A stretch of DNA of 64,000 nt from a virus. Its lineage: Duplodnaviria; Heunggongvirae; Uroviricota; Caudoviricetes. The position numbers were made by a program, and so were the translations under genes. The notes under the pieces are model-generated. The model saw only the letters and a program-made list of their open reading frames with translations, was not told where the DNA came from and made no database searches. The stretch is taken from the IMG/VR virus record IMGVR_UViG_3300031867_000033, positions 344 to 64,343 of that record; one strand, 5' to 3'. Of the stretch, positions 5,281-61,345 are shown piece by piece. The first letter of the stretch is position 1, and each line of letters opens with the position of its first letter.

Positions 5281-6520
5281 AATATGTGTTATTAACTAAT
5301 TAACATTACTTAATTAGCAATTAACCATGTTATGGTTTTTAAAGAGTGCCACAAACACTCTTTGCAGCTATATTTATAGCTGCATTTATATCTCTATCTA
5401 TTTCAAATCCACAAGAACATTTAAATATTCTATCTTTAAGAGTTAATTCAATTCTGTTTCCACAACAACTACAAGTCTAAGAAGTATAAGCAGGATTTAC
5501 TTCATACAAGTCTGTTCCAAACTTTTTACACTTCCATTTTAAAGTGTCAGTAAATCTACTTAATGGACTTATTTGAATTAATCTTCGTCTGTTTTTATTA
5601 GACATTTTAATTTTAGCATTAGTCAAATTTTCTATTGCAACATTATTATATCTACACAACTTTGTAGTTGTTTGTTTAATAAAATCTTTCTTTAAATTCT
5701 TAAATCTTTCATAAGCTAATTTTACTTTTTCATTTAGTTTATTATAGTTATTTGAGTTTTTAATCTTTTTATCTCTTAAAGATTTCAATTTATTTATTCT
5801 ATAAAATTCTCTTATAATACTTTTAGGATAGTTAATAAACTTTCCTTCAGAGCTTGTCATAAAATTCTTTATACCCCAATCAAGACCTATAGTAGTTGAA
5901 CTATTCTACTTAATAGGTTCAGGAGCATCATAGCTACCCGTAATATACCATTTTCCCAATTCATATTTGAATCTTGGCTTTTTAATTTCTGATATATTAA
6001 ACTTAGTTATATATTTCCTATCAACTACTATTTGCGATTTACCTTTAACACTAAAACTCTAAGCAGCGGGTAATTTTACTTTAAAATTATTAAATTTTAA
6101 CGTTTGTGAAGGTAAATAGAATGATTGTTTATTTGGATTATATTTATGAAATTTAGGCTTTCTTCCAATCTTTTTATAAACTCTTTGAACAGTATTAGCA
6201 TAATTCAAAAGAACTCCTTTAACAATTCTATTATGTAATGGAATTTCTGTTTCTCCGAAATCATTAAGTAAGTCTTTTTCTTTATAACCAATAATTCCAA
6301 AAGAACTAACCTTTGGTAATTTTTCCTAAAATTTTTCAACAAGAAAATTTCGCATTATATGAGAGTACTTACAATAAATAAATAAAATTTCTTCTTGTTC
6401 TTTAGTTGGATAAATTCTAAATTTACAGCCTTTAGTTAACATGATTTCACCTCCTATAAATATAAATAGTAAATTTGTTTTTATATTTATATAATATCAT
6501 AAGTTTGATTTAAAATCAAA
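5281..6520 (-). mobile_element. IS200/IS605-family TnpB-only element, copy 1 (no TnpA seen)
   Basis: Conserved left end ...TATAAATATAARTAGTAAATTT...ATATCATAA and right end AACCATGYTATGGT...TGTTATTAA shared with copies at 56170-57460 and 60121-61345. Confidence 0.65.
5339..6442 (-). CDS. tnpB: TnpB (OrfB, RuvC-like + Zn-finger) ~367 aa, continuous only if 4 in-frame TAG are read as Gln
   Basis: Translation matches copy 2 along full length (MLTKGCKFRIYPTKEQE...CSCCGN...DRDINAAINIAAKSVCGTL); three of the four TAGs are aligned to Q in copy 2 or 3 (below), and a fourth such pair is a TAG in copy 3 opposite Q in copy 1. Confidence 0.8.
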
Positions 6521-6573
6521 TCTTTGATATTGAAGGCTAAAATCTATAATGCGCCGGCGCATCATAAGTTTTT

Positions 6574-6750
6574 AATTAATTCCTTCTTCACCATCTTCTA
6601 CATCAATTATATCAATCTCACAGTCTCCATCGTTTTCATTGTAAAATTTTTCTGCCGCATTTATAGCTTCTTTATAAGTTTTCACTTCTGCAATTAAATA
6701 AGAACCTCTAGAATAATCAACAACTCTATACATCGAAACCTCCAAAAATC
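6574..6750 (-). CDS. small acidic protein (58 aa), paralog of 45761..45913
   Basis: RBS GGAGGTTTCG-ATG; MYRVVDY...DGDCEIDIIDVEDG resembles MYKVYDYYEDEF...DGECDVRIFNCEEVEG. Confidence 0.4.
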
Positions 6751-6851
6751 AATTGATTTAATTTCCTCTGTATTAGTGCACTAAAGGTTAATAAAATTAA
6801 CGCCGCAGTATTACTACCACGGCGCATTATTTTATTCGCCGCTATTCAAGT

Positions 6852-7256
6852 TTAGTTAACTCGTCTATACTCCTTAGCAGCATTCTTCTTAGTCTCTACC
6901 TCCTCAATTCTCTCATCTGCAACCATCAGTCTCAGCATTGCGGATGCCTTCTGAGTGCTGATGTCAAAGGTCTCAGCTATTACCTTAGCAGTATAAATAG
7001 TTCCGACCTCCATTCCATCAAATATCGTATTCTTCAGAGCCTCATTCTCAGGATTGGTCTTAGCGGACTTTCTCTCTCTGCCCTTAGCAGCCTCATTCTT
7101 CTTGTTAATCTTCTCAATAGAAGTCTTAGCGAACTCTACCAGCTCATCAATCAGAACGCCATCAGCATAAGCAGGATAAGAAGTCTCAGTTTCCTTACCA
7201 GCATTCAGAACTACAGTACCAGTTACGATTGCATTAAAGAACTCACGGTTAGTCAT
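6852..7256 (-). CDS. hypothetical protein (locally higher GC)
   Basis: ORF track. Confidence 0.55.
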   Translation of the reverse strand: MTNREFFNAIVTGTVVLNAGKETETSYPAYADGVLIDELVEFAKTSIEKINKKNEAAKGRERKSAKTNPENEALKNTIFDGMEVGTIYTAKVIAETFDISTQKASAMLRLMVADERIEEVETKKNAAKEYRRVN

Positions 7257-7404
7257 AAATCATTTCTCCTTTTTATTTGACTTAAAAATTTATTGATAAC
7301 TAATTTCTTAGGTCTGATTTAAGGTTCAGACCTTTAGAAAAGAAACCTCTCTTTTTTTTTATTACTTTTTTAAGTAATTTTTTAAATTATGCTTTATTCA
7401 GTTT

Positions 7405-19830: not shown

Positions 19831-21584
19831 TATATTCCCTCCATCTCCAAATTTTTATCAATTCTTGTTCTTATATCGTTAAATCTTGTGCGATAAAGAT
19901 TACCATTTTTAAAATAAGGATAAAAAGCACTAATTTTTTCAAAGTTCTTAAATTCTTCTTCATTTAGCTCGCTCTTAACTTTAAGTTCTCCATTTTCCCA
20001 ATAAGGAACACAAAGTCCTTTAAGCGATTTCTTACTACTAAAATTCTTAGGGTCTTTAAAAATTTGAAGTTCTTTTCCGTCAGAAGTCTTTCCATATGTT
20101 GCTTTAATTGCAATTGAAAAAGTATCACGAGTAAAAGGCTTAAGTTCCTTTTTTTCCTCTATTGCTTCCATAGAAAATGAACCAACGCCAAGACTTACAC
20201 AATTTGCTGCGAATCCTTTAAGAGCAAGATTTTCATAAATTTTCTTTGCTCTCTGAATTGTTATAGAGTCTCCATAAACAGCTTTAACTTTGGGATTTAA
20301 TTCTATATAGCCTTTAGAATTTTTATTTCCTCCAAAAAATTCATAAAGGGTTTCAACCATTCCTTTATCCTCATAAGTTGTGTCTCTAAGAAATTTAACT
20401 TCCCATTCCCAAGCAGTTTCATTTCTTCCATCTATATATGCCCTTTGATATATCTTATAAATACCATCAAAGTGCATATATTTAACTCTTATTTCAAAAT
20501 CATGCCCATAGGTATCAAGAATATATTTTACATGACTATCTGCCCAATCTAAAAGTTTTTCCTCAATTTCATTCATTGCGTGATCGTGATATATTTTAAT
20601 TATATCATTCATATCTATTACAGGAATTCCACAAAGTGCAGCAACTGGCTCTGCACTATCATGCCTTAGCCCAATAAAACCTTCATGCTCTTCAATTTCT
20701 TTCTTTAAACTAGGTAATACTTCCGTAGCGATACGCCAAAAATTATAGCTATCTGCAACAGCTGCAAAACTAGTCTTAGGATAAATTTCAGTTAAAAGTC
20801 TACGATAAGTTTCTCTTTCATCACCGCAGATTGCAAAATCAGAAGTCATAACAGAATGTTCAGTAGAAGTCAAACCTCCAATTATAACAGGTTCAACATC
20901 TTTATAAATTTCCTTAATTTCAAATCTTGCTCCAACAGTAGAAGAATTATAAAAAGTAGTAAGCCAACCAAGTGAAGAATTAACTGCGCTTTCATAACTC
21001 TCTTGACCACGCATTGAAAAATCACAGCATCCTCTCTTCCAAGTGTCTACATTATCAACTGTCATATTATAGTAATATTTAACAATCTTTCCATATTCAT
21101 ATCCAACAGTTGCACTTATAGAGGGATGCCATATCAGACATGAAAGCAAACTTTCAATGCTTTGTGCTACAAAACAAAAATCTTTATGTGTAGAGCGAAT
21201 TTCAATTGCAGGAACTTGCATAGGAACGAGAGTTCCCTCAGGGAGTGCATTAACTTCAATAGGAAGATAGCCAAGATCATGAAGTGCTAAAACTTTTTCT
21301 AAAGTTTTGTCTACTACTTCTTTAGTATATCCAAGGCCATTCATTAAAACATCATAATATTCTTGTTTAATTTGTTCCTTTGAAACATCAAAAAACGTTT
21401 CATTAAAATCTTTATATAAATATTTGTAACAAAAACTACTAAGTCCAAAAAACACCATTTTATCTATTTTTTTCAATCTAGATGAACGTGGAGTTAAATA
21501 AGAAGTAAAATGAACTAATTCTGGTCTATATTGATTTAGATGAGTAAGCTTATAAAAATCTGTCTTTAACATTGAATTATACAT
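19830..21584 (-). CDS. nadV: nicotinamide phosphoribosyltransferase (Nampt/NadV-like)
   Basis: 584-aa protein of the Nampt/NAPRTase family by overall sequence; RBS AAGGAG; start overlaps stop of upstream endonuclease gene. Confidence 0.65.
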   Translation of the reverse strand: MYNSMLKTDFYKLTHLNQYRPELVHFTSYLTPRSSRLKKIDKMVFFGLSSFCYKYLYKDFNETFFDVSKEQIKQEYYDVLMNGLGYTKEVVDKTLEKVLALHDLGYLPIEVNALPEGTLVPMQVPAIEIRSTHKDFCFVAQSIESLLSCLIWHPSISATVGYEYGKIVKYYYNMTVDNVDTWKRGCCDFSMRGQESYESAVNSSLGWLTTFYNSSTVGARFEIKEIYKDVEPVIIGGLTSTEHSVMTSDFAICGDERETYRRLLTEIYPKTSFAAVADSYNFWRIATEVLPSLKKEIEEHEGFIGLRHDSAEPVAALCGIPVIDMNDIIKIYHDHAMNEIEEKLLDWADSHVKYILDTYGHDFEIRVKYMHFDGIYKIYQRAYIDGRNETAWEWEVKFLRDTTYEDKGMVETLYEFFGGNKNSKGYIELNPKVKAVYGDSITIQRAKKIYENLALKGFAANCVSLGVGSFSMEAIEEKKELKPFTRDTFSIAIKATYGKTSDGKELQIFKDPKNFSSKKSLKGLCVPYWENGELKVKSELNEEEFKNFEKISAFYPYFKNGNLYRTRFNDIRTRIDKNLEMEGI

Positions 21585-44287: not shown

Positions 44288-44452
44288 GTTTTATTTTTCT
44301 GTAATAAAGTAAAAAAAATAGAAATAAAATCTAAGATTTCGACTTCTGTAAAGAAAAATCTATATAAGGAAAGAGGGCAGGGACTAAGTCCCTGCATATA
44401 ATCTGAATTTTGTCTACTCTTTTTAAACGAACGAGTTTGAGATTTCAGAAAC

Positions 44453-44593: not shown

Positions 44594-44609
44594 AATATTT
44601 CTCCTTTAA

Positions 44610-44981: not shown

Positions 44982-45127
44982 TAGACCTCTCCTTCCCAAT
45001 CTTCAATCTCTGATTTCTTCCAAGCCTCTTCTATTGCCTTATCTGCTTCACTTGCTGAATGGCACAGAGAATAAAATACTAAAACATCAATGAAAATACC
45101 TATAAATATTATAAGGAAAATCTTCAT
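44981..45127 (-). CDS. small membrane protein (48 aa)
   Basis: RBS AAGAAAGAGGTGGAAAGA-ATG; TAATG overlap with next gene. Confidence 0.35.
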   Translation of the reverse strand: MKIFLIIFIGIFIDVLVFYSLCHSASEADKAIEEAWKKSEIEDWEGEV

Positions 45128-45236
45128 TCTTTCCACCTCTTTCTTATTTTCTATAATAATTATATCAAAAATTTTTTAAAAAATCAAATATTTTTTACGC
45201 TCTGTACCGCTGCATCAAACTACGGCATATTATAAG

Positions 45237-45761: not shown

Positions 45762-45913
45762 TAACCTTCTACCTCCTCACAGTTAAATATCCGAACGTCA
45801 CATTCTCCATCAGTATCCTCACAGAACTCATCTGCCAAATACATTGCCTCCTCATAAGTATCAGCGCTTCCTATGTAGAATTCATCTTCATAGTAATCAT
45901 ATACTTTATACAT
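45761..45913 (-). CDS. small acidic protein (50 aa), paralog of 6574..6750
   Basis: TAATG overlap with downstream gene; sequence similarity to 6574..6750. Confidence 0.4.
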   Translation of the reverse strand: MYKVYDYYEDEFYIGSADTYEEAMYLADEFCEDTDGECDVRIFNCEEVEG

Positions 45914-46077
45914 CTTTTTTTACCTCATTTCTTATTTTCTATAATAATTATATCAAAAATTTTTTAAAATTACAAATAGTTTTATATTTTAAAAACTATT
46001 AAAATTAACTTCTGCCGCGCTACCAAATGCTGGTAGAATTAGAAAATTATGGAAGCGCGGCGCATTGTAAACTTAAA

Positions 46078-46106
46078 GATAAAATAAAAACTCCTCTTTC
46101 GAGGAG
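46078..46106 (-). terminator. intrinsic terminator GCUCCUC-GAAA-GAGGAGU + U-tract
   Basis: Hairpin ctcctctttcgaggag with A-tract on plus strand. Confidence 0.5.
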
Positions 46107-46199
46107 CTTTAACAAGACCACTGAGTTAACTAATTGCGCGCTTTTTAGCTTAATCCTACTCTTCGGTATTAAACTATTTTATAATCTTCTATATATTAT

Positions 46200-46330
46200 A
46201 TTTGCTTAATTTGCTGTGCTGGTCTTTACGCATATAAAACCCGCATTAACGCAGCGGAACATCATTTTTAAAGTTAGACTTTTAACGGGAAATCACAAAT
46301 CATCTTTAAAGTTAGACTTTTAACGAGAAG
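46200..46330. repeat. tandem ~38-bp direct repeat (x2) ATCATYTTTAAAGTTAGACTTTTAACGRGAARYCACAA
   Basis: Two adjacent near-identical units seen directly. Confidence 0.5.
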
Positions 46331-46383
46331 CCACAAACCATCTTTAATAAAATAAAGATTTATTTCTAGGCTCTTATTTCTAA

Positions 46384-47448
46384 TTAAGAGTTTATTAAAC
46401 TAAGTAAATAGTCTTCATTAAGTTTATTATAATCCCAATAAGGAATTTCTATTAATTTTATGTTATGGGACTCACAATAGTCTCGTTTTAAAGAATCATA
46501 TTCTTGCTAAGTCTTTAATCTTTCTTCTCCACCAAAATGGTCAAAACTTTCATAATGCTATGAACCCTAATATTCAATTAATATATTCTAATCTGGTAGA
46601 TAAAAATCAAACTTAAGCTATTTACCTTTTCCAGTTAAATCTTCAAATGAATACTAATCTAAAAACTCTATCTAAAGAGAATTTAAAATATTTCTAACTT
46701 TTAATTCTCCTCTTGATTTAAGACATCCACAACTCTATACTGTGCCAGCTCTAAGATCAGGACCCGAAACTGATTTTAATTTAGGATTTCCACAATCACA
46801 TTTGCATAACCAATACGCTTTTGGACCTCTTGTATAGTCCCTATCTACTACTGTAAGCATACCAAAACGCTAATTATATAAATCTCCTACTATTGAACAT
46901 CCACAACTCTTTGTATGTCCATTTTTTAATGCATTTCCATCTACTTTTAAAATGGTCTACTAACTACAGTCACACTAACACTTCCAATATACTCTCGATA
47001 AATCACTCTTATCTCTTCCTAAAACTGTTAAATGTCCAAATTTCTATCCCGTTAAATCATTATAATGCTACTCATGTATTAAACAGCCACAACTCTTTGT
47101 ATTTCCTTGCGTTAAATGATGACTGCTACATATCTTTATATTATGTTCTGGACATGAACAAATACATTTCCAATATGTATAAGTAGATTTTTTAAGATTA
47201 CTATTTTGAATTTCTTCAGGTGTAGCTTTAGCAATAACTGTTAATCTTCCAAAAGTCTATCCTATTAGATTATGTTCCTTACTTAAATGAGAAATATCAA
47301 TATTATACTTTTCTGCTATTTTTTTAATAACTCGAGTATACGTCTATGAATATCCCAATCTTTTTAAACACTCTGGTATAGTTTTACTTGTTGTTAAAAT
47401 TTCTTCCAATTCATCCTTAGAAAAATTTTCATATATAGGTTTTTTCAT
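46384..47448 (-). CDS. HTH + Zn-ribbon-repeat + DUF559 endonuclease-like protein, family copy B (~354 aa, ~16 in-frame TAG)
   Basis: RBS AGGAGGACTAAT-ATG; three YWKCxCxCP...KSCGCL repeats; C-terminus LKFDFYLPD(Q)NILIEY(Q)GS(Q)HYE; entirely absent from track. Confidence 0.6.
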
Positions 47449-47577
47449 ATTAGTCCTCCTAGTCCTTTATAATATTAAAAATATGAGAGGGCGGCACAGG
47501 ACTAAATGCCTTCATAGGTTAATTACTCCTATTTATCCTCTCATATATTAAGTATATTTAATTAGTATTTTGTCTAA

Positions 47578-49095
47578 TTATTTCCAACAAAACTGGGGCT
47601 GAGTTAAAATTTCTACCATTGCTTCATAGCCGCTCTTATTAATTAACTTGTTAAGTTGACCAAACGGACCAGCACCATAACCTGATACATAGGCAACATT
47701 ATCACTCTCCGGCGCAAGAACTGTTCCATTACGTGCAGCGACATTCCAGCTTATGAGCTTGGGGGACTTAAGTCCTACCTCTACGTATTTCTTTGCCCAT
47801 TTTGAAGCAATAGAATCAAGTTGACCGCTACGAGCATAACTATCTATTTCTCCATCACTAACTACCACTAAAGCAGAAGGAGTCTCGCCACTTTCCTTTG
47901 CAACATTGAAAATAGCTTTGAAGCAAAGGTCAAGATTTGTATTATACTCAACAGCGCTACTCAATACATAAGAAAAGCACTTTTCAATATCCCAATCTTC
48001 TTCTAATTTAATAAAAGAAGGATTTCCTGCGAAGCTCATGTAGAGATTCTTATATCTTCCTGTGTTTCTCTGTGCAAAATAAGTAGCTAATCCTACACTC
48101 GCTGCGATAGGCTCATAATTAGGACTACTCATGCTTCCTGAGATATCCGAACATACGACTACATCATGTCCGCCTTCAACGTAATTAGGCAAAGAACTCC
48201 ACTGAGCCTTGTCGACTTCATCAAGAATTCCAACGACAGGCTTGGTATTAGAGCTTCCATACCAACCGCTGTTCCAAGCTCTATTTCCGCCATTGATTAT
48301 ATACTTCCTACAAATCTCGCTAGGAGTTATGACAGAAGCATTAACCTTAGCCTCTCCCTTAGAAAGCTTATTCTTATATTCTCCAAAAGCTTCAGGATTA
48401 TGAATACTAAAAGCCTTAGTATAACGACTCATAGCAAGAGAAGGAACTGCCTCATAATCAATCTCATTCCATTCTCCTGCACTCATCTTACGTTCTACAA
48501 CATCAAGATAAGCACGAAGCTTGGAAAGAGCCTTTCTATAAGTTCTAGGAGAAATTCCAGCTATCTTACAAAATTTATTAGCAAGTCTACGAGATTCCTT
48601 TGAAGAAGTATTTATACTACAAAGCCACTTACTAGCTAAAGAAATAGGCTTTTCCTCCTTCATACGAGTTATATCAAGAACAAATCTATTCTTAATAAAA
48701 TCCCACATTGCAGTTTCACAAGGTGTTCCTTCAAGTGAATAAAGATCATCCCATCTTCCAATATCCACAATGGTCTGAAGATTACGCTTAACCTTTTCAG
48801 GCTCTAACTTTGCAAGTTCCTTAAGTAAAAGTCTTCCAATTCGTCTTTCACCAAGGCCACCATTTCTTCCTGCATCTCTAGTATAAAGGATTAAATTCGC
48901 CGCCAGTTCAGAATTCTCATTATAGGCAGCCTTCCACTTGCTTATAATTTCGTTATCAGATTGATGACGCATTCCACCAATTAGAGCGAAAAGATCAAGT
49001 AATGCTCCTTCACCAGTATGCGAAAATACTATTCCACCATTTTCACTTAAAGTCTGATTAGCCATTCTTTCAAAATTCTTTACAAAATTACTCAT
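47578..49095 (-). CDS. possible Ro60-like protein (TROVE + vWA architecture; Rsr-like); TROVE assignment tentative
   Basis: C-terminal vWA/MIDAS VVCSDISGSMSS ... VVSDGEID; N-terminal ~300 aa helical region resembles a TROVE domain by architecture only. Confidence 0.45.
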   Translation of the reverse strand: MSNFVKNFERMANQTLSENGGIVFSHTGEGALLDLFALIGGMRHQSDNEIISKWKAAYNENSELAANLILYTRDAGRNGGLGERRIGRLLLKELAKLEPEKVKRNLQTIVDIGRWDDLYSLEGTPCETAMWDFIKNRFVLDITRMKEEKPISLASKWLCSINTSSKESRRLANKFCKIAGISPRTYRKALSKLRAYLDVVERKMSAGEWNEIDYEAVPSLAMSRYTKAFSIHNPEAFGEYKNKLSKGEAKVNASVITPSEICRKYIINGGNRAWNSGWYGSSNTKPVVGILDEVDKAQWSSLPNYVEGGHDVVVCSDISGSMSSPNYEPIAASVGLATYFAQRNTGRYKNLYMSFAGNPSFIKLEEDWDIEKCFSYVLSSAVEYNTNLDLCFKAIFNVAKESGETPSALVVVSDGEIDSYARSGQLDSIASKWAKKYVEVGLKSPKLISWNVAARNGTVLAPESDNVAYVSGYGAGPFGQLNKLINKSGYEAMVEILTQPQFCWK

Positions 49096-49235
49096 TATAA
49101 ATTCCTCCTTAAATTAAAGGACACGACGAAGGTAATTACAATTTAAAAGATTGCTCCTAAAATATTGCTGATATCGTCGTATTACTTTTTATTTTCTATA
49201 AACATTATACTAAAATTTTAAGAAAAATCAAATAT

Positions 49236-49404
49236 TTATTTTCTTTGTCTAAATTTTTCAACTAATTTCATACCTTCATTAATTCCATATTGAATACCAT
49301 AAGGAATTTTTTCTTTATCTTCTATATTCTTTAAAATTTGTCCCATTGAAAGAAAAATTGCTAAAGCTAAAAGATAGTCACCATACATATTATTTTCATT
49401 CATA
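49236..49404 (-). CDS. small membrane protein (start at MNENNMYG after TATAGGAG)
   Basis: ORF track trimmed; N-terminal part of track ORF is read-through of a GC palindrome. Confidence 0.4.
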
Positions 49405-49529
49405 TTTTTACTCCTATAATGCGCCGCGACATCATAAATCATCAAATCTAACCTTCGCCACGAGTCCAATTTTTTGGACAGTCGGCAGAGGTTAAGAAAA
49501 TAATTAAATCTATGATATGGCGGCGCAAC

Positions 49530-49650
49530 AAAAATAATAACCGCCTTCCGGAGGTGTCGGGCCCCACTACGTTCTTCACGAAGCCAACCGATTTCAAGTC
49601 GGTGCTCAGCGCCGGCTGAGTTCAGAAGGCAAAAAACAAGACCATTATAA
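49530..49650 (-). ncRNA. GC-rich multi-stem structured RNA candidate closed by a 7-bp terminal helix (GCCUUCU/GGAAGGC); not a canonical tRNA
   Basis: Stems CTCAGC/GCTGAG and ACCGA-CUUGAAA-UCGGU seen; lies ~450 bp from the Ro60-like gene. Confidence 0.3.
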
Positions 49651-49771
49651 TTTATTAATGCTCTACCAATTTGAGCTAATTTTCTAAAAGAAGAAAATAA
49701 AAGATTTGAACTTTCAACACTAAATAAATATTTAAAAATTTGCTGAAATGGTCTTTAATTAAATTTTTAAA

Positions 49772-50287
49772 TTACGGCCATTCACCAAGAGGTTTACCAA
49801 GCATTGTAGGATTATCTACATTAGTACTATAAAGAATACCCTCCTGCGGCGTAAAAATTTCTCTTGCTATATCCTCATAAAGGGTACTACGCATACCATA
49901 GTAATCTCCTAAATCATCTGTGTAGTACTGAACAACTTCCTTTCTAAAGACAATATAAGTAAGTGGATTACTAAATACGCCTTCAATGGTATTTATAGCA
50001 TCTACTGCCTGATTACCAGTAAAAGCAACTGAAAAAATACTCCTAGGAATGCTAAGAACCACTCCATTTGCAGGAACTACTGCTATACGAAGTGTTACAT
50101 TTCCGAAAGGAATTTCATCTGGAAGTATCGCATCAAGTGCTCCTGCTTTTTCTCCATTATTTACGAGAAGCTTAACAATTCTCTCATCATTATCATAAAT
50201 AACCTTAACTTCGGGATCTCTCTTAAAGAAAGCCTCGATTTTATTATAATGCTCAACCCAAGGTGTCGTCAAATTTAAACTTGCCAT
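49772..50287 (-). CDS. hypothetical protein (locally higher GC)
   Basis: ORF track. Confidence 0.55.
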   Translation of the reverse strand: MASLNLTTPWVEHYNKIEAFFKRDPEVKVIYDNDERIVKLLVNNGEKAGALDAILPDEIPFGNVTLRIAVVPANGVVLSIPRSIFSVAFTGNQAVDAINTIEGVFSNPLTYIVFRKEVVQYYTDDLGDYYGMRSTLYEDIAREIFTPQEGILYSTNVDNPTMLGKPLGEWP

Positions 50288-50829
50288 TTTATCATTCCTC
50301 CATTTAAAAATTAAAAGGTCTAAAATCTAAGCACCATGTCGGTTACGCTCCGACGTCTGCTGGGTGGAAGCCAACAGTTCTACTATTAAACTAATGGTGC
50401 AAACGATACTTCTTTTAATAGATTAAGACGTTTGGGAAAAGTATCAAGCCCTAATTGTCGCTCTGATTATACTCAAGAGTCAAGAGTTGGAGTCCATTTT
50501 GGTACAAAGACCCCTGCATGATTCGCACATGCGGTCCGGAGGTTGCAGCTCCGAGTCTTAACTACTTGACTAAGGGGTCAAAACAAGACACACTTATAAA
50601 CGGCGTGCTAGCGATTACACCATCTCCCCATAATATGGCGGAGAGAATAGGACTCCAACCTATACTACCGGCTCCAAACGCAAAAGAAAATAGTTGCTGA
50701 TGTGTCTTAAGGGAATTTGTGGTTACGCTCCACAGTCTTGAGTGCCACAAACTCACGAACTAACTATTGTTCTAAATTCCCAAATGGCATTGTTTATACT
50801 CAAATGCCAAGAGTTAAGGTAGATGCAAA

Positions 50830-50904
50830 TGACGCATGAAGAACTCGAATCTTCAACATCTACGTTCTAAGCGTAGCCTCTCTTGCCAGTTGGAGTAATG
50901 CGCC
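50830..50904 (-). tRNA. tRNA with anticodon UAG (Leu by anticodon) but short class-I variable arm
   Basis: Manual fold: acceptor GGCGCAT/ATGCGTC (one G.U), U8A9, anticodon stem CTACG/CGTAG with loop CUUAGAA, 5-nt variable region, T-arm GAAGA-UUCGAGU-UCUUC. Confidence 0.5.
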
Positions 50905-51579
50905 ATAACTAGATCGAAAACGTCAGAATCGGACTGCCCCTCCGCATCCCTGGTGCTAGCTAGTGGAATTGCACCACTTAATACTTTTAGCTAACAAATG
51001 CGGCGTGCTACCACTACACCACGTTCTCGTTAATTTTAGTCGGCGATACCAGACTTGAACTGGTACGAGTTTTACCTCGAGGGATTTTGGTCTTGATGGT
51101 TGGTGCTGCCCCAACAATTAACTCGACACTGTTCGACACCAAGTAAGTCCCTTGTGTCTGCCTATTCCACCAATCGCCGAAGTTACTAGACAGTTAAATT
51201 TAAAGGACTTGAACCTTCTCTAAAAATTATACGAAAAATTTTTATTTATCCAATTAAATTTTGCTGTAACTGTCTAAATGGTTTTACATTAAGCCGCGGC
51301 TATATGGGAACCGCTAAACCATATATCTTAATGTAAAGTCACCTATATCCGTAATGCTCGGATTTCTCCGCCTTGAGAGAGCGGTGTTCTACTTTTAAAC
51401 TAATAGGCGAAAGACTAGGCAGTTAACTTTGAAGGGCTTGAACCTTCTATAAAAATTATACAAAAATTTTTAATTAACCATTTTAAATTTGCTGTAACTG
51501 TCTAAATCACCCCAACCGGTTATGCTCCGATGTCTTGAGGTTGAAATCCTCATATTCTACTATTAAACTATGGGGCGAA

Positions 51580-51656
51580 TGGCTGGGTAGGTGGGACTTA
51601 AACCCACGACCTGCTGGTTAACAGCCAGCTGCTACTATCGACTGAGCTACTACCCA
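51580..51656 (-). tRNA. tRNA-Asn (anticodon GUU) with encoded CCA
   Basis: Manual fold: acceptor TGGGTAG/CTACCCA, anticodon arm GCTGG-CUGUUAA-CCAGC, T-arm GTGGG-UUUAAGU-CCCAC, 3' GCCA. Confidence 0.65.
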
Positions 51657-52102
51657 TCAAATCGGTACCAACCAAGTACTTTATGCTATAGCCGCTGTGA
51701 ATGGAGTTTAAAACCACCTTCGTAGAGGTTGATGGTTCCCATTACTGGTTCTCGCAAAAGATTGCTTTAGAACTAAAGCCGTCTCCTATAGCTTCCCAAT
51801 GGACCGTCAGGGCTTTGCTCCCTGCACCTCCAGCTTGCAAAGCTAGCGTTCTACTAAATGAACTAACAGCCCAAATCAAGACAGCTTTAATCAATCAGTT
51901 CCAAAAATAACAGATTCTTTAAAATTGCTGTCGCCGTCTTTAATCGCGGATACGAGATGTGCGCTCGTGTCTGAGGAGCATGAATCCCCTATGCTAACTT
52001 CTACACCAATCCGCAAAATTAGTCAAGACACTTTTAAAAAATTTTAATAGCCAAAAATTTTCAAATTAAATATTGCTGTATGTGTCTTTTAATTATTTAA
52101 AT

Positions 52103-53034
52103 CTATTCCCATTCTTCATCTGAATAAGAATTTATATCTTTCTTTTTTCTAGGTAATTTTTCAAAATCACACCATTTACGTATAGAATTATCTGAAACTC
52201 CATACATTTTACCTATTTCAGTAAAAGGTTTAGTCCGAATTAGCTGTTTTAATTCTTTGCGAGAAGGTCTAGTAACGGTTCTCTTTGTTAAAGACATTTC
52301 TAATTTTTCTCTATCTGTATAAACTTTAGTCTATATCATTCGATAAGATAAAAATTCTTCATCAGTTAATTCTTTTATTGGGATATTATTCTCATTTAAA
52401 ATTTCCCAATAATATCCTAAAAACCTATATCCTGCATAAAGTGAACTATAAAAACTATCTATCTATGATTTATTTAACTAAAAGAAACTCATTATTTCTC
52501 TTATATTAAACACTCTTAATGATATTTTATCTTCTGATAAGGCAACATACTTATTCTTCTAAGTTACACGAGAACGTGTCTAATCTTCATCTATTCCATA
52601 ATATCGTAGAGCATTGGTTATTACAGAATCAGCACATTTATATAAATCCTACAATTCTTTACAAGATTTTCCTTCCACCCATTTTTCATAGATTTCTTTA
52701 TAATTGTAAAGATTTCCACCTGATTTTCCACCAAGAAGAATATTATATCCTTTATTTCTATTTGTGGAATCATAATATGAAATCCAATAAATTTCTCTAT
52801 CATTTAATTCTTCAACCGAACAATATTCAATAACATCATATTTAAAATTTTCAATTCCATATTTCTTCATGGCTGAATACAAATGATTATCATCATGTCT
52901 CTTATTTTCTTTTGCTTTTGCCTTATGTACGCCCCATCTTTTCTTTAGTTGGACGCTCTATCCAATATAAACTTTTCCATTTATAAGATTCTCAATCTTA
53001 TAAATGCCACAATTCTACTATTCTACTCTTGTCT
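52103..53034 (-). CDS. GIY-YIG homing endonuclease #3 (~310 aa, ~8 in-frame TAG) with C-terminal HTH
   Basis: CGIYKIENLINGKVYIGQS; C-terminus KMYGVSDNSIRKWC; track shows fragments 52649..52882 and 52103..52297. Confidence 0.6.
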
Positions 53035-53226
53035 CCATTTTACATAACCTCACTTGATTATTTTATTTACGCTTTAAGCCGCGCATGAGCTAATTTAATG
53101 GTTTCAGGGGCCCAGTTCGGACGGGGCTTCGAGAGTTTTAGAGACTCACAGACTACCTTCATATCTTACCCTGAATAGCAAACGTCTGGTATCGAACCAA
53201 ACACTTCATATTTCTATGCGTGCCCA

Positions 53227-53496
53227 TTACACCACTTCACTAATAATTTCTTCAATATTCAACTTTTTAAAAACCCAGTTTCCCTTTTCATTTAAGTAAA
53301 TCCAACCATATTTTTTAAATTCTTCAAACAATTCCTCAATTTCATCTGCCCAATTTTTTGCTATATCTAAACTTTTTGGTTTATACCCATCTGGATAATA
53401 TCTTGGATAAGATAAAACAAAAATTATATGTGACCAAGCATCAGCTGTAGTTTTAAAATTATCTTTTGAATAAAGCAAACAATCTTTAGCTTTCAT
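53227..53496 (-). CDS. hypothetical protein
   Basis: ORF track. Confidence 0.45.
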   Translation of the reverse strand: MKAKDCLLYSKDNFKTTADAWSHIIFVLSYPRYYPDGYKPKSLDIAKNWADEIEELFEEFKKYGWIYLNEKGNWVFKKLNIEEIISEVV

Positions 53497-53955
53497 TTTA
53501 ATCTCCTTTTTAATTTTCTATAAATATTATATCAGAATTTTAAGAATTTTTCAAATATTTAAATCCAATTTTAAGTAGTAAGTAGTTTCAACCTTACGCA
53601 TCCTCTATGGATTTCACAAACTTGATAATGGAGTTGGACCTCCAAGTGTTCCATGAACGAGGCTCCTATTGTCTTAGTGCCTTTTAATTCTTGGCTATAC
53701 TTAAATTAGATTTAAAGTCCGCCTTCCGGGCGACGATCCCGGCACCCCCAGATTAATGGTGTTGAGTAGTGGAATCGAACCACTTATTATCCTTTACCCA
53801 ACAAGTCTGGTGCTCTAGCCAATCATGAGCTAAAGGCGGAAAATTACAAGACAGCTTTTAAAATTTTAATGCCAAAAATTTTAAATAAATTGCTGAACTG
53901 TCTTTAAGTTTCTATAAATATTATAACAAAATTTTATAGAATTTTCAAATATTTA

Positions 53956-54027
53956 TACGCTGTGAAAGAATCGAACTTTCATCAGATGCTTATCAGACAT
54001 CTATTCTAACCATTGAAATAACAGCGT
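53956..54027 (-). tRNA. tRNA-Ile (anticodon GAU)
   Basis: Manual fold: acceptor ACGCTGT/ACAGCGT, anticodon arm GATGT-CUGAUAA-GCATC, T-arm GAAAG-UUCGAUU-CUUUC. Confidence 0.55.
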
Positions 54028-54323
54028 ATTGGGTATAGCTTCGAGGCTATACCATTGTACAATTGTATGACCTCTATATTTATAGTCCAGTTGCCATACG
54101 GTGGACTGGAGCTTCCACATTTGGGCTTGAACCAAAACTGGCAGAGTCTGGTAGCTGATATTGGATTTGCACCAATCAAAGTTCGTATATTATCAACTAA
54201 AGTCTGCTGTGCTAACCTTATTACACCATGTGGAAATATAATAGAGAATCTAATTAAAATGTATTTATTTCTCTCAAACTCTCTATAAATATTATAGCAA
54301 AAATTTTTAAAAATTTCAAATAT

Positions 54324-56169: not shown

Positions 56170-57460
56170 TAAGTAAAATCAAATAGTTCAAACTCTACTG
56201 TGTTATTAATCTATTAATATTATTCAATAGACAAACTAACCATGTTATGGTCTTAAAGAGTACCACAAACACTCTTTGCAGCAATGTTTATTGCTGCATT
56301 TATGTCTCTATCCATTATGTTTCCACAAGAACATTTAAACACTCTATCTTTAAGAGTTAATTTAATTTTATTTCCACAACAGCTACAGGTTTGACTAGTA
56401 TAAGCAGGATTTACTTCAAATAGGTCTGTACCAAACTTTTTGCATTTCCATTTTAAAGTTTCAGTAAATCTGCTTAATGGATTTATTTGAATTAGCCTTC
56501 GTCTATTCTTATTAGACATTCTAATCTTAGCATTAGTTAAATCTTCTATCGCAACATTATTATTTCTACACAATCTTGTAGTAGTTTGTTCAATAAAATC
56601 TTTCTTTAAATTTTCAAATCTTTCATAAGCTATTTTTACTTTATTATTTAGTTTATTCCAATTATTTGAATTTTTAACTTTCTTATCTCTTAAAGACTTT
56701 AATTTATTTATTCTGTAAAATTCTCTTAATACTGTTTTAGGATAGTTTATAAATTCACCTTTAGAATTTGTCATAAAATTCTTTATTCCCCAATCAAGCC
56801 CTATAGTAGTTGTTTCTTGTCTTTCTGGCTCTTCAATTTCATAAGAACCAGTTATGAACCATTTACCATTAATATAATGATATCTTGGCTCTTTAATTTC
56901 TTTAATATTGAATTTCTCAATATACTCATTATCTACTACTATTTTTGACATCCCCTTAACACTTAGCTCTCTTGAATGAGGTAAATTAATACCTTTTTTA
57001 TCAATTTTATAAGTTTTAGAGGTAATGTAGAATGATTGTCTATTTGGATTATATTTGTGAAATTTTGGTTTTCTTCCTAATTTCTTATAGCATCTATCAA
57101 CTGAATATTTATAATTCATAATAATACCTTTAACTAAATAAATTGGTAAAGATATCTCCTAAACTTCATAGTCAGTTAATAGATTTTTTTCATTATAACC
57201 TACTAAACCGAATATGTTAGTTTTAGGTAAATTATCTTGATATTTTGCTACTAAAAAATTTCTCATAATATGAGAATATTTACAGTAAATCAATAATATT
57301 TTCTCTTGTTCCTTTGTTGGATAAATTCTAAATTTACAGCCTTTTAACATGATTTCACCTCCTATAAATATAAGTAGTAAATTTATTTTATATTTATATA
57401 ATATCATAAATCTGATTTGAAAACAAATATTTCATTATACATTATAATATTAACCTGCGC
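56170..57460 (-). mobile_element. IS200/IS605-family TnpB-only element, copy 2
   Basis: Shared end sequences with copies 1 and 3. Confidence 0.65.
56253..57407 (-). CDS. tnpB: TnpB, 384 aa, two track ORFs in the same frame joined by one TAG (57159-57161)
   Basis: 57159..57407 (N-terminal HTH-like part) and 56253..57119 are in frame; the 13 intervening codons are open; C-terminal Zn-finger CSCCGN...CSCG and RuvC-like DRDINAAINIA. Confidence 0.8.
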
Positions 57461-57567
57461 CGCGCTACCAATTTTTGATAAAATTGGTAAACTTTAGAAG
57501 CGGTAAAAATCTAACATAAAAGTACTGTGAATAACATCGCAACGCTTTGTAGGTATCATTTCAATTA

Positions 57568-58413
57568 TAACTCATCGTCTTTAATCTAAGAAATTCTTTC
57601 TTCAATCTCTTGTCTTATACTCTAATCTATATATTCTTTTTCATCCTCTTCACAATCTATGTATTTACTATCAATATAAAAATTTACATTAGTTAAAATA
57701 TAATGTTTAATTTTCTTATGTTTACTATTTAATTCAATTTTTTCATAAAAATCAATTAATTTATATTTCTATAAAAGTAAAAGAGATTTATAAATTGAAA
57801 TATGATTTTTCTATTCTTTCTTCTTTCCTAAAAACGTTCTTAAATCCATCATTGAGAAATCAAAAGATTTATACATTCTTTCTATTCCAACTTCTCTATA
57901 GGTTAATAAAAACTGATAAAGCCTAAAATCCTATTCTGAGAATTTTAATTTTTCATTCATAATTTTTAAAGTTTCTTTTGGGATATTTCTGGACTTGTGC
58001 CCAGGTCTAGTTTCATAGTATTCGCAAGGTCGTTTTTTTCTAATCGTCCAAAGCTTTAACCAAATTTTATAATCTTCTTCTTTTGTTAATTCCCAAGAAG
58101 ATTTTTCTGGATAATCTTTTTTCATTATCTCTTTTCTTAACTTTTTTGCTTCTTCTGGTTCCTCTCCATTGTTTCCATAAATTATTTTTCCATTTCTTTC
58201 GAGTTCCCACCAGTATTTTTTAATTGAATTAACACTTAAATCAATGGTTCTTGATATTTCAGAAAGATTAATATTTTTATGCTGAAAAACTCTTTGCTAC
58301 ATATTAGGAGGATTGCCACCTAGACATACTAAATAATTAAATAATTTTTGAGAATTATGGCTTATATCATGCTAGTCTCCCATAGTCTTTAAGCCTTTTT
58401 CATAAATACTCAT
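57568..58413 (-). CDS. iteron-adjacent winged-helix (Rep-like) protein #2, 281 aa, 7 in-frame TAG
   Basis: RBS GAGGTGATAAA-ATG; KLFNYLVCLGGNPPNM(Q)(Q)RVFQHKNINLSEISRTIDLSVNSIKKYWWELERNGKI; stop TAA 57568-57570; track has only a 64-aa piece. Confidence 0.55.
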
Positions 58414-58469: not shown

Positions 58470-58680
58470 TAAAATTTTGATAATTTCTATAATCATTAAA
58501 AATATCAAAAATTTCTTTATCATAAAAATTTTATCAAAAAGTATCACCAATTTATCAAAAAGTAATACCGAATTTATCAAAAAGTAATATCAAATTTATC
58601 AAAAAGTATCACCAATTTTATCAAAAAGTATCACTATATGTAGATTACTTTTTCCTAGTCGGCAAAAAGTAATCAAAAAG
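58470..58680. repeat. iteron-like direct repeats, ~6 x TTATCAAAAAGTA(A/T)YACC at 21-22 bp period
   Basis: Units at ~58530, 58551, 58573, 58594, 58617 plus degenerate flanking copies; immediately upstream of Rep-like gene #2. Confidence 0.6.
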
Positions 58681-58689
58681 CGACGCGAC

Positions 58690-58950
58690 CGTTGGTCGCA
58701 CAAAAGATTTCTAAAACTAATTAATTTAATCTTAAGCCTATATTTACGACCGCCGGCGCTACGCGCCTCTGGTCTATTTTCAAAAGCTCTCAACTAAGGA
58801 AACTCTTCCATTTAATCCTCTGCCGCCCTTCCTTCAAAATCGATTGCACGCGCAACGCGCGGGCAAGGCTTTCGTTTTGCGCGAGGCCGCAGGCCGAGTA
58901 GCAAAACAAAGCCCAAGAAGCATCAAGGCTTTAATTTCTATTTTAAAACA
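58690..58950. repeat. GC-rich hairpin cluster sharing GGCGCTACGCGCC and GCGAGGCCGNAGGCCGAG motifs with 2130-2260
   Basis: Direct comparison of the two segments; 13-mer GGCGCTACGCGCC identical. Confidence 0.5.
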
Positions 58951-58982
58951 AAAGCACCGTGGATAATACCGCGGCGCAAAAT

Positions 58983-60120
58983 TTATTTTTTAATCCATTT
59001 AGTAAAATGAATAGCTAAATAATATAAACAAAATATAACTGGAAAAATTACTAAATAACTTCCACTTAAACTATGAACTAATGTTGTAATTTGATTTCCA
59101 ACAAGTCCAGCTATTGCCCAAGCAGATAATGCTGTTCCATGAATTTTACTTATATGTTTCATTCCATATAAGTCTGAAAGTAAAGGAGCAATACAACTAA
59201 AACCTGCTCCATAACAGGCAGAAATTAAAATTAAAGCAATAACTGAAAATTTAGAAAAACAAAAAGCAAATATTGCACAAACCATAGAAATTAAAAAGAT
59301 TATATAATAAATTGTTTTTCTTTCTTTTAGCTTATCTGAAGCTGCAGAAAATACTAATCTTCCTGCTCCATTAAAAATCCCCATTATAGAAACGACTAAA
59401 GCAACTGCTCCAACACTAAAGCCAAGTTCTCCAAGAATTAAACTTGCAGTAGGAATTAAAGCAAGACCACAAGCAATATTTAAAAAGAATAACAGCCAAA
59501 TAAAAATAAAATTCTTATCTTTTAATAATTCTTTAATTTTAAAATCTGTTTTTGTTTGCGGCTCGTTCCAGCCCTCTGGTTTCTTCAAAAGAAAATGTCC
59601 TATTAGCATTGGAATAAAATATATTCCAGCAAGGATTAAAAATACAATTGGCAATGCAAAATGTGCCATTAAAAAAGTAATAATAGGACTTGCAAGAGTT
59701 GACGCGAATCCAAAAGCACAAACTGAAATTCCAGTTGCTAGTCCCTTATTGTCTTTAAACCATAACATTAAGGTTTTAACAGGAGTTAAATAGCCAATTC
59801 CTAGTCCAATTCCCATTAAACATCCATAGCCCAAATAAAGAAGAACTAAAGATTTTAAACCGACTGCTAAACCAGCAAGACAAAGTCCTCCACAAAAACA
59901 AAATATACTAATTAAAGAAGAGCGATGAATATTTTTTTCAACAATTGAACCACCGAAAGCAGCACTCATTCCCAGAAAGAAAATTGCTAAACTAAAAGCG
60001 AATTGAACTAAACCAACTGATACTCCTAAAGCTAAAGCGATAGGTTGGACAAATAAAGACCAGGCATAAACAGAACCTATACAAATATGAAGTAAAATTG
60101 CGGGAAGTGCCGCATTTACT
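58983..60120 (-). pseudogene. MFS transporter, oxalate/formate antiporter (OFA) family, 5'-truncated by TnpB element copy 3
   Basis: Track ORF 58983..59969 extends in frame upstream (…AALPAILLHICIGSVYAWSLFVQPIALALGVSVG…, OFA-type GSVYAWS motif) to the IS right end at ~60121 with no start codon. Confidence 0.55.
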
Positions 60121-61345
60121 GTGTTATTAACTTAGTTCGTTAAACTAAGCAACTAACCATGCTATGGTTTTTAAAGAGTGCCACAAACACTCTTCGCAGC
60201 TATATTTATAGCCGCATTTATATCTCTATCCATTTCAAAACCACAAGAGCATTTAAATACTCTATCTTTAAGAGTTAATTTGATTCTATTTCCACAGAAA
60301 CTACAGGTTTGACTAGTATAGACAGGATTTACTTCATATAAATCCGTTCCAAACTTTTTACATTTCCACTTTAAAGTATCAGTAAATCTACTTAAAGGAT
60401 TAATTTGAATTAGTCTTCTTCTATTTTTATTAGACATTTTAATTTTAGCATTAGTTAAATCTTCTATTGCTATATTATTATATCTACACAGTCTAGTAGT
60501 TGTTTGTTCTATGAAATCTTTCTTTAAATTTTCAAATCTTTCATAAGCTAATTTTACTTTATTGTTTAACTTATTCCAATTGTTTGAATTTTTATTTTTC
60601 TTATCTCTTAAAGATTTTAGCTTATTTATTCTATAAAATTCTCTTGTAACACTTTTCGGATAATTTATAAATTCACCACTAGAACTTGTCATAAAGTTCT
60701 TTATACCCCAATCAAGCCCTATAGTAGTTAAACTGTTCTGCTTAACAGGTTCAGAAATATTATAGCTGCCGGTAATATACCATTTACCAGATTCATATTT
60801 AAACCTTGGTTCTTTTATCTCTAATATATTAAACTTAGTTATATATTTCTTATCAACAACTATTTTTGATTTACCTTTTACCGAAAAATTTCTAGCAGAC
60901 GGTAATTGAATTTTAAAATTTTTAATATTAAGATTCTATGAAGGTAAATAGAATGATTGTTTATTCGGGTTATACTTGTGGAATTTTGGTCTCTACCCTA
61001 TCTTTTTATAAACTCTATTTACGGAATTGGCATAATTATAAAGAACGCCTCTATATAATCGCTTAGGAAGTGATATTTCTGTATTAAAATCTTTTATAAG
61101 ATTTTCTTCATTATACTTAATAATTCCAAAAGAGCTTACATTAGGTAAATTATCCTAAAATTTCTCTACGAGAAAATTTCTCATAATATGAGAGTATTTA
61201 CAATAAATAAACAAAATTTCTTCTTGTTCTTTAGTTGGATAGATTCTAAATTTACAACCTTTTAACATTTGATTTTCACCTCCTATTGTAATATATTAAG
61301 TCTCTCACTTTAAATATATTATAACTTAAAACAGAGATAAAATCA
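60121..61345 (-). mobile_element. IS200/IS605-family TnpB-only element, copy 3, inserted into 5' end of MFS gene
   Basis: Right-end motif TGTTATTAACT...AACCATGCTATGGT and left-end motif shared with copies 1 and 2. Confidence 0.65.
60171..61268 (-). CDS. tnpB: TnpB, ~366 aa, 3 in-frame TAG
   Basis: ATG at 61266-61268 after GGAGGTGAAAATCAA; MLKGCKFRIYPTKEQEE...; TAGs at F(Q)D, G(Q)R, S(Q)N. Confidence 0.75.

Follow-up and report, generated by a model that had tools for sequence, protein, structure and literature searches.

Three elements that encode TnpB, in a 64,000-nucleotide (nt) stretch of a tailed-phage genome (IMG/VR record IMGVR_UViG_3300031867_000033, positions 344 to 64,343; "the window" below), are diverged members of one TnpB-only family that is related to the IS200/IS605 IStrons of the group A type, in which a group I intron is combined with an insertion sequence (IS). 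By its sequence anatomy, copy 3 is an IStron with a group I intron at its 5' end. It lies within a gene for a transporter of the major facilitator superfamily (MFS), and we expect that this gene is probably intact through splicing. The other two copies have tnpB and the right end of the element but not the intron. Overall, we consider it quite likely that copy 3 is a spliceable IStron, that copies 1 and 2 are its intron-less relatives, and that the family spreads by TnpB-driven homing. The analysis was carried out in silico, from anatomy, boundaries, restoration of an open reading frame (ORF), covariation, and purifying selection; from these we infer splicing, nuclease activity, the target-adjacent motif (TAM), homing, and the deletion history.

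A group I intron at the 5' end of copy 3

The features of copy 3 and of the gene around it are as follows (a slash marks a splice site or element junction here and below):

61680 to 61698, minus strand: MFS exon 1, ATGAAAAGAAATAAATGGT (MKRNKW plus 1 nt), which ends in the U of the P1 U.G pair
60119 to 61679, minus strand: copy 3, a complete IStron of 1,561 nt, from AAGTAATTGCC... to ...TTAATAACACAG
61366 to 61679, minus strand: predicted group I intron ribozyme core, P1 to P9, with the P, Q, R, and S elements UUGCUGGGAA, CAGCAGCC, GUUCGACGGUCAU, and AUGAUAUGACC
61355 to 61368, minus strand: post-P9 segment GAGAAUUAGCCAUG, which can pair with the right end CAUGGUUAGUUGCU at 60146 to 60159
61318 to 61346, minus strand: promoter-like site inside the intron and upstream of tnpB, TTGATT-17-TATAAT (10/12 match, the best in the region)
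60171 to 61268, minus strand: copy 3 tnpB, 365 amino acids (aa), three in-frame TAG codons
60119 to 60215, minus strand: structured 3' RNA, the candidate omega-RNA scaffold, with hairpins A and B within the last tnpB codons
60099 to 60118, minus strand: candidate guide template, TAAATGCGGCACTTCCCGCA, directly after the right end and at the start of MFS exon 2
58983 to 60118, minus strand: MFS exon 2 (PF07690), with uninterrupted homologues

The termini of copy 3 are the exact limits of its homology to the same element at another site (locus L003). (Relatives were drawn from IMG/VR viral contigs of up to 258 kb; loci from IMG/VR and metagenomes are labelled with numbers of the type L001, and W3 is copy 3 of the window.) The original prediction, which was made from the window alone, had the element end at 61345 and span about 1,225 nt, but it continues to 61679. 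The first (5') 314 nt are the group I intron. In a focused scan of 421 nt, positions 61366 to 61690 matched the full Rfam model RF00028 with 38.2 bits (E = 2.3e-8; the gathering score is 50), and homologous introns at five related loci have 55.5 to 81.7 bits, above the gathering score. The blastn matches of this region are group I introns of Staphylococcus Kayvirus phages and of the Clostridium phages c-st and D-1873. The annotation of D-1873 names a group I intron here, with an OrfB transposase after it, and this element is the IStron CbISt4 (Tourasse et al., 2014, PMC4227781).

In the Rfam alignment, P1 is formed by AAAUGGU/AA and UUGCCACUU, with a U.G wobble at the last exon nucleotide, and the last G of copy 3 is the intron's terminal G. 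The U.G pair at the 5' splice site, the terminal G, and the conserved core P3 to P8 are all present. The consensus of about 25 promoters of the phage is also that of the promoter-like site inside the intron. Neither nhmmer nor blastn found a second intron in the window, so copies 1 and 2 are intron-less.

The interrupted transporter gene

The MFS gene begins with an ATG at 61698, which is preceded by a strong ribosome-binding site (RBS), AAAGGAGG. The frame breaks after MKRNKW and picks up again 1,561 nt downstream, at 60118, with ..NAALPAILLHICIGSVYAWSLF, so that the element sits after codon 6, directly behind ATGGT. Joining AAAUGGU/ to /UAAAUG (in DNA, ...AAATGGT plus TAAATGCGG...) restores MKRNKWLNAALPAIL in frame. 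The predicted spliced product has 384 aa, and the expected ligated RNA junction is AAAUGGU-UAAAUGCGG, or AAAUGGU-UAAAUGCGGCAC. In 13 IMG/VR phage contigs, the MFS gene is uninterrupted and its N-terminus matches the joined exons of the window. For example, the gene in L038 reads AAATGGTTAAATGG (MKENKWLNGALPAIL), ATGAAAGAAAATAAATGGTTAAATGGTGC, which is the two window exons abutted (the window has AAATGGT/TAAATGC).

It had been predicted that copy 3 removes the start codon of the MFS gene and that empty sites in relatives would confirm the disruption. The uninterrupted homologues do identify copy 3 as a real insertion, and the condition that had been set for refutation (relatives with the same 5' structure and no IS) does not apply in that form. 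However, the start codon and the RBS are kept, the intron appears to be spliceable, and precise excision of the IStron would restore an ORF that is collinear with the uninterrupted homologues. Thus, the interrupted gene is probably intact through splicing.

As to what the gene encodes, its best model is the L-lactate transporter SfMCT (262 bits, below the cut-off of 320), and the OFA family model gives 168 bits. Homologues are found on at least 13 phage contigs (L033 to L045), and it looks like a recurrent auxiliary gene of this group of phages.

Insertions of the same element at other sites

The IMG/VR locus L003 has the same element (84–89% identical) at a different site, where it starts with AAGTAATTGCC after ..ATTGGT and ends with ..ACACAG. 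A strict search for the right-end pattern recovered only the L003 contig. Further copies are in L052 and L053, and the length of the element is 1561–1566 nt in all four loci (W3, L003, L052, and L053). These four independent insertions are in the MFS gene, a GH25-like lysin gene, a tail-fibre-like gene, and one other gene, and in 4/4 cases there is an open frame across the joined flanks.

The 5' flanks of the four insertions are AAATGGT, ATATGGT, ATATTGGT, and AGTTTGAT, with the pentamers ATGGT, ATGGT, TTGGT, and TTGAT. The flank TTGAT is that of L053, and its internal guide sequence is GTCA, while the other copies have TGGT together with GCCA. This compensatory change supports P1 and ties the flank motif WTGRT to the splice site. 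The TAM of IS605 is TTGAT, which is close to WTGRT, and we suggest that WTGRT is the TAM of this family.

The tnpB genes and the missing transposase

All three TnpB proteins exceed the Pfam cut-offs for PF07282 (80–84 bits) and PF01385 (63–64 bits), and they can be aligned end to end. Copy 3 TnpB also matches NCBIfam NF040570 (178.6 bits versus a cut-off of 100), and among the NCBIfam models the IS200 type scores higher (134 bits) than the IS607 type (82 bits). The 385 aa that were originally given for copy 2 count from an upstream in-frame ATG; from the homologous start, the protein has 365 aa.

The copies are 77–83% identical at the nucleotide level, with synonymous divergence (dS) of 0.8–1.2, so they are old relatives and not the products of recent transposition. 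The ratio of nonsynonymous to synonymous divergence (dN/dS) is 0.12–0.18 among the three copies and 0.09–0.21 with relatives. Hence, all three genes are under purifying selection and, as had been proposed, are not decayed. In all three proteins, neither the D/E/D residues of RuvC nor the cysteines of the zinc finger have been lost (GLDWG, IE(D/N)L, DRD.NAA, and CxxC), and the proteins may well be guide-dependent nucleases.

A Pfam scan of 47 ORFs of the window (about 100–360 aa) showed no TnpA-like family (Y1 transposase or resolvase), and a simple scan for the HUH motif of TnpA gave zero matches. Also, there is no room for tnpA inside the elements, as the gap between intron and tnpB is about 100 nt and has no ORF. 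The elements are therefore TnpB-only, in agreement with the original prediction. A Y1 (HUH) TnpA or its remnant, which is a mark of group A IStrons, was not seen in them. Loss of TnpA is common in IStrons (PMC4227781; PMC13565253), so the group A assignment rests here on the TAM and on TnpB similarity.

We found 607 TnpB homologues at E ≤ 1e-20, of which the closest (70–87% identical) are on phage-sized contigs. In most of the related loci that were retrieved from IMG/VR and metagenomes, the intron is directly upstream of tnpB. The best match among cultured-phage records is 29% identical. Representative bacterial genomes gave four matches, all of them in metagenome-assembled genomes, and one of these is the same contig as an IMG/VR virus. 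A locus with a different arrangement is L013 (2900–4400; IMGVR_UViG_2531839741_000003), where tnpB is 58% identical, the group-I-like P/Q/R/S elements are downstream rather than upstream, and the locus appears to lie inside a DNA methyltransferase-like ORF.

RNA structure at the right end

As originally reported, the three copies have a common right end; it starts at the stop codon, continues with AACCATRRCATGGTTA, and reaches TTAATAACACA. It is found only at the copies: each motif occurs exactly three times in the window (for the right-end 16-mer, 0.09 occurrences are expected). The architecture is kept across about 45 distinct sequences of the family. In order, it comprises a hairpin that spans the final tnpB codons and has a conserved UUUGU(G/U)G loop, the stop codon, hairpin C (CCAUAACAUGG or a variant of it), a linker UARUU, hairpin D (a variable stem with a UAACGAA loop), and (U)UAAUAA(C/A)ACAG, after which the flank begins. 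The sequences in copy 3 are AACCAUAGCAUGGUU for hairpin C and CUUAGUUUAACGAACUAAG for hairpin D, with UUAAUAACACAG after it. Folding, which had been proposed as a check, supported a structured RNA: in an RNAalifold analysis of 14 representatives, hairpins B, C, and D covary, with compensatory changes in 13/23 pairs, and the folds of single right ends beat those of shuffled sequences (z of −2.6 to −3.7). No Rfam family matched this RNA.

The right end had been proposed as the scaffold of the guide RNA, beginning immediately after the stop codon. A conserved structured RNA with the flank directly after it is indeed present, but because a hairpin lies over the last tnpB codons, the structured region begins inside the ORF. 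Guide RNAs of TnpB usually have structure that starts within the tnpB ORF. The guide itself is the sequence directly after the right end (bioRxiv 10.1101/2023.11.20.567912), which for copy 3 would be the start of MFS exon 2. The original prediction also suggested a search for other matches to the guides; the 16-mers after the three right ends have no second target in the window beyond chance. They match their own flanks only, as the homing model predicts.

In IStron copies, the 3' half of hairpin C together with the linker is complementary to a 14-nt segment that directly follows P9 (61355–61368 in copy 3). In an alignment of 11 IStrons, 89.6% of the cells of this long-range helix are paired and 5/14 pairs have double (compensatory) changes, as compared to 31–53% paired in slid controls and 0/500 shuffles that reach the covariation score; the 5' strands were picked by best complementarity, so these counts are biased towards the structure, although its position is consistent. 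The intron-less copies have no such post-P9 pairing. Since the long-range helix and hairpin C use the same segment, they could be the structural basis of mutually exclusive fates, splicing or guide-RNA formation. A conflict of this kind was shown experimentally for other IStrons (bioRxiv 10.1101/2023.11.20.567912).

Another possible long-range pairing is between 60293–60298 and 60160–60165, and it occurs at the same positions in copies 1 and 2. In it, the CxxC-coding UUGUGG (in copy 3, CUGUGG) faces CCAUAA (in copy 3, CCAUAG), which is the 5' half of hairpin C. This pairing includes one compensatory change and may belong to the guide-RNA fold.

Copies 1 and 2 are intron-less cassettes

The features of the two cassettes are:

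5284 to 6545, minus strand: copy 1 (promoter, tnpB, and right end), with its left junction in 6527–6545 and its right junction at 5286–5284 (2-nt ambiguity)
5339 to 6442, minus strand: copy 1 tnpB, 367 aa, four TAG codons
5011 to 5283, minus strand: 5'-truncated gene at the right end of copy 1, with intact homologues of 120 aa
56198 to 57432, minus strand: copy 2 (promoter, tnpB, and right end ...ACACAG), intergenic
56253 to 57350, minus strand: copy 2 tnpB, 365 aa, one TAG codon

Around copy 1, homology to element-free relatives stops at about 6545, in an intergenic hairpin of the phage, and resumes at 5285/5284. In these relatives the empty site reads GAAGAGAAAGAT/ATTATTCATGAAATG, and the junction in the 120-aa gene is GAAGAGAAAGAT/ATTATTCATG. 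The homologues of the truncated gene (P0121 to P0123) are 87–94% identical and read MTRLEEIE...EEKD/IIHEMIENK. The window lacks the first 88 nt (30 codons) and the RBS of the 120-aa gene, as well as an upstream gene of 91 aa. The intact allele in L097 and L098 contains a perfect match to the flank ATTATTCATGAAATGATTGA. In IMG/VR, there is little conservation of synteny around copy 1. By this comparison with homologues, copy 1 truncates the 120-aa gene and is the real disruption among the three copies. The original prediction missed this truncation of a different gene, along with the lack of an intron in copies 1 and 2 and the RNA structure within tnpB.

An identical piece of copy 2 is present in a second sample (L048), and there are further intron-less cassettes in L049 and L051. 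In L049 (3604–3760), the right end of the cassette abuts a tRNA-like 3' fragment, GGGGTTCAAGTCCCTCGTCGCCCA, whose matching 5' half was not found.

The similarity of copies 1 and 2 to IStrons starts at AAA(G/T)ATTTG, which is the −35 region of a promoter (TTGATT-17-TGATATTAT). This promoter closely resembles about 25 native promoters of the phage and is also found inside the intron of copy 3. So, the left ends that were said to be shared do have common sequence, but what they share is a promoter of the sigma-70 type and an RBS, like those of native genes, and not a demonstrable transposon end.

The native promoter, AAATATTTGATT-N17-(TG)ATATAAT-ATTTATAGAAAAT, is highly conserved; it occurs at about 25 sites on the minus strand (for example at 15616, 26392, 42564, 45193, and 49237) and precedes many genes; the tnpB cassettes hold a look-alike. 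Often, 12–19 nt upstream of the promoter, there is an intergenic palindrome, GCGCCGC...GCGGCGCATTGTAGATT (14 matches on both strands versus 1.2 expected; for example at 6541–6554, 29000–29013, and 61727–61740). Copies 1 and 2 each have such a GC-rich palindrome upstream. We asked whether it could be the left-end hairpin of a transposon and rejected this, as the palindrome belongs to a phage-wide repeat and is also present in an element-free relative. We also rejected the TGGT that lies 38 nt upstream of the copy 2 promoter, or 71 nt upstream of the copy 1 promoter, as a left boundary, and a fusion at copy 1 of an upstream 53-aa ORF with the downstream ORF, as the homologues have a different N-terminus.

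The type of promoter and 5' untranslated region (UTR) that copy 1 has is also found within a bona fide IStron, L055, and the roughly 27 nt to the left of the copy 1 promoter agree with the post-P9 linker of L055 at 17/27 positions. Furthermore, copy 1 and two other intron-less relatives have an altered terminal G, which would be expected after the need for splicing is gone. A partial deletion is seen in L050 (2340–2500), an IStron relative with an internal deletion in which the P4–P6 region is joined directly to the tnpB RBS. Taken together, the likeness to L055, the partial deletion in L050, and the altered terminal G favour copy 1 as an IStron deletion derivative, which it probably is.

TAG codons and the phage

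With about 30% GC, the window is rich in A and T, and its genes are nearly all on the minus strand. The contig from which it comes is a 98-kb metagenome assembly in ENA. ORF coverage rises from 0.70 to 0.93 if TAG is read as a sense codon. In-frame TAGs need a suppressor, and there is a candidate within a cluster of tRNA genes:

53099 to 53175, minus strand: tRNA with anticodon CUA, inside the tRNA cluster

The cluster consists of 11–13 tRNA genes, tRNA-CUA included, at 41823–54028 (minus strand). Similarity to other tRNAs was uninformative about the amino-acid identity of the tRNA-CUA. The tnpB genes of copies 1, 2, and 3 have 4, 1, and 3 in-frame TAGs, and 5/8 of these align with CAA or CAG in a sibling copy. 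Among 46 distinct family members, the TAG columns are about 6-fold enriched in Gln and one column has 4 TAG versus 42 Gln, but several are mostly Lys or Arg. Within the family, tnpB genes with TAG are confined to a subclade from recoded phages. Of the claim that TAG stands at Gln positions, the reading of TAG as sense is supported, and Gln is the meaning that is most consistent with the alignments, although not every column points to it. The window belongs to a large phage in which TAG is a sense codon and, judging from these alignments, most probably one for Gln. Our literature search found no paper that connects IStrons or TnpB with stop-codon recoding.

In-frame TAGs are concentrated in mobile-looking genes, two of which are GIY-YIG endonucleases, and most other ORFs have zero TAG. 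The counts are 16, 10, 10, 8, 7, and 5 at 46384–47448, 21577–22470, 52097–53038, 40828–41724, 57565–58413, and 62417–63307 (minus strand). The genes at 21577, 43417, 46384, and 62417 look paralogous, with CxC repeats and a C-terminal ..IEYQGxQHY motif. The phage also encodes a transfer-messenger RNA at 43060–43416 (minus strand; Rfam RF00023, 52.4 bits versus a gathering score of 47). The other genes also fit a large phage: NrdD, NrdG, GIY-YIG endonucleases, NAD synthase, Thg1, RNA ligase, a macro domain, and ADP-ribosylglycohydrolase.

A proposed mechanism and its alternatives

We propose that upon transcription of the MFS gene from upstream, the ribozyme excises the 1,561-nt element at AAAUGGU/ ... 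ACACAG/ and religates the exons, so that the transporter would still be produced. A second class of transcript would start at the promoter inside the intron. It would lack the ribozyme and act both as mRNA for TnpB and as the guide-RNA precursor, with a guide RNA made up of at least the last ~100 nt of the element, followed by ~16–20 nt of exon 2. As the 3' segment can form either guide-RNA hairpins or the pairing with the intron, splicing and guide-RNA formation would be mutually exclusive. Without TnpA, the element would spread and persist mainly because TnpB cuts the intron-less alleles of co-infecting relatives, which would then be repaired from the IStron-bearing genome (homing). Copies 1 and 2 would have kept the promoter, the intact tnpB, and the guide-RNA region and lost the intron. 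In the case of copy 1, an IStron in the 120-aa gene would have undergone a deletion of the ribozyme, exon 1, and the upstream gene.

The most obvious alternative is that all three copies are plain TnpB-only IS200/IS605 insertions and that copy 3 inactivates the transporter by parting it from its start codon. It accounts for the tnpB and right end that are common to all three copies, for the lack of a start codon until 59969 in the ORF downstream of copy 3 (under code 11), and for the Rfam gathering scan, which reported no intron. However, the gene has its start codon, RBS, and first six codons 1,561 nt farther upstream, the 5' 314 nt of the intervening sequence are a group I intron, and the junction restores a conserved N-terminus; we consider this alternative to be very improbable. 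Scarcely better is the idea that ordinary group I introns were present in the host genes first and that TnpB cassettes entered their P9 regions later, so that the two would be separate movers. Intron-less cassettes do exist (copies 1 and 2, L049, and L051), and L013 has an intron-like core downstream of tnpB. But the same composite, with the same outer boundaries and 1561–1566 nt in length, is in four unrelated genes, its right end pairs with the intron and covaries with it, and the flanking motif covaries with the intron's guide sequence. We give even less credence to the possibility that these TnpBs were domesticated and are no longer nucleases (for example, as TldR-type RNA-guided repressors that serve the phage). 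This would fit with the absence of TnpA, with the age and conservation of the copies, and with their phage-like promoters, but not with the intact RuvC D/E/D and zinc-finger cysteines in 3/3, with a guide region that is simply the local flank, as in mobile elements, or with related copies at many different sites.

A more serious competitor, although we still think it unlikely, concerns only copies 1 and 2: they might never have had an intron and might be free-standing cassettes of TnpB and guide RNA that home without an intron and co-convert their flanks, much as Seg and Mob do in T4. Both copies start at a phage-type promoter, where the hairpin-promoter modules of intergenic regions normally sit. 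At copy 1, neighbouring DNA has been replaced, as co-conversion would do, and the flank ATTATTCATGAAATGATTGA is that of the intact allele in L097 and L098. In addition, tnpB is under purifying selection. What speaks for loss of the intron instead is that the bona fide IStron L055 has a promoter and 5' UTR of the same type as copies 1 and 2, that the left flank of copy 1 resembles the L055 linker (17/27), and that partial-deletion intermediates such as L050 exist.

Several observations weigh against our preferred explanation, of a spliceable IStron with intron-less relatives. The window's intron scores below the Rfam gathering score, and RF00028 was not reported in scans of 64 kb (at the gathering threshold) or 6 kb (E ≤ 5). 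The case for splicing of copy 3 is one of in silico anatomy, and the exact intron-less allele of this phage's MFS gene was not found. The proposed TAM is based on four flanks, and the empty site of copy 1, AAGAT, fits WTGRT at 4/5 positions only. The left junction of copy 1 is not separable with certainty from ordinary intergenic sequence of the phage; for copy 2, whose flanking gene is without relatives, the empty site was not found. Finally, the assignment of TAG to Gln is based on alignments, in which several TAG columns are mostly Lys or Arg.

A more speculative idea, which we think rather improbable, is that stop-codon recoding acts as a timer for the IStron and that the intron-less cassettes are RNA-guided counterparts of free-standing homing endonuclease genes in the competition between phages. 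The first TAG is at codon 38 in the tnpB of copies 1 and 3, and the interrupted transporter gene has zero TAG. Before the tRNA-CUA is active, TnpB would be incomplete, the intron would splice freely, and the host gene would be expressed. Once TAG is read through, TnpB would capture the 3' RNA as its guide, repress splicing, and cut the intron-less alleles of co-infecting relatives.

Comparison with known systems

IStrons have been described in Bacillota, in Fusobacteria, and in two C. botulinum phages; here, a whole clade is found in large phages in which TAG is recoded. This clade is absent from cultured-phage records and is rare in representative bacterial genomes. Because phages co-infect and recombine, a phage IStron without TnpA is a natural test case for intron homing by TnpB alone, and intron homing has been put forward as the way in which TnpB-only IStrons spread (PMC13565253). 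For the two folds that compete in the 3' RNA, the family is also a source of natural covariation data. For annotation, our results imply that a supposedly broken transporter gene is probably intact by splicing and that the truncated gene is the neighbour of copy 1.

The closest known systems are the group A IStrons, such as CdISt1/CdiIStron of C. difficile, which combines an IA2 group I intron with IS200/IS605. (The likeness was judged by described features.) [quoted passage not shown] In contrast to group A, the flank here is mostly ATGGT or TTGGT, and the terminus is ACAG throughout the clade rather than TCAG, with CAG in common. Also, the elements described here are phage-borne, have in-frame TAGs and an internal promoter with the phage consensus, and show no tnpA remnant.

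Group B IStrons, which are of the IS607 type (CbISt3, CbISt4, and CboIStron of C. botulinum and its phages c-st and D-1873), resemble our elements in other respects. They too are phage-borne, as already listed for c-st and D-1873 (PMC4227781); the similarity of their introns to that of copy 3 is 78.5% over 175 nt of DNA; and the conflict between splicing and guide RNA, which is experimental there, has a counterpart here in the long-range helix. But in group B the insertion follows GG (TGGG), the 5' splice site carries a G-C pair, the last nucleotides are CGG, and the elements use a serine recombinase. [quoted passage not shown]

Finally, copies 1 and 2 are reminiscent of the free-standing homing endonuclease genes Seg and Mob of T-even phages: they are nuclease cassettes, equipped with a promoter, that lie between phage genes, and their predicted target is the allele that does not have them. 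Unlike Seg and Mob, the cassettes would be targeted by an RNA guide and not by the protein, and it is by such RNA-guided cutting that they would home.

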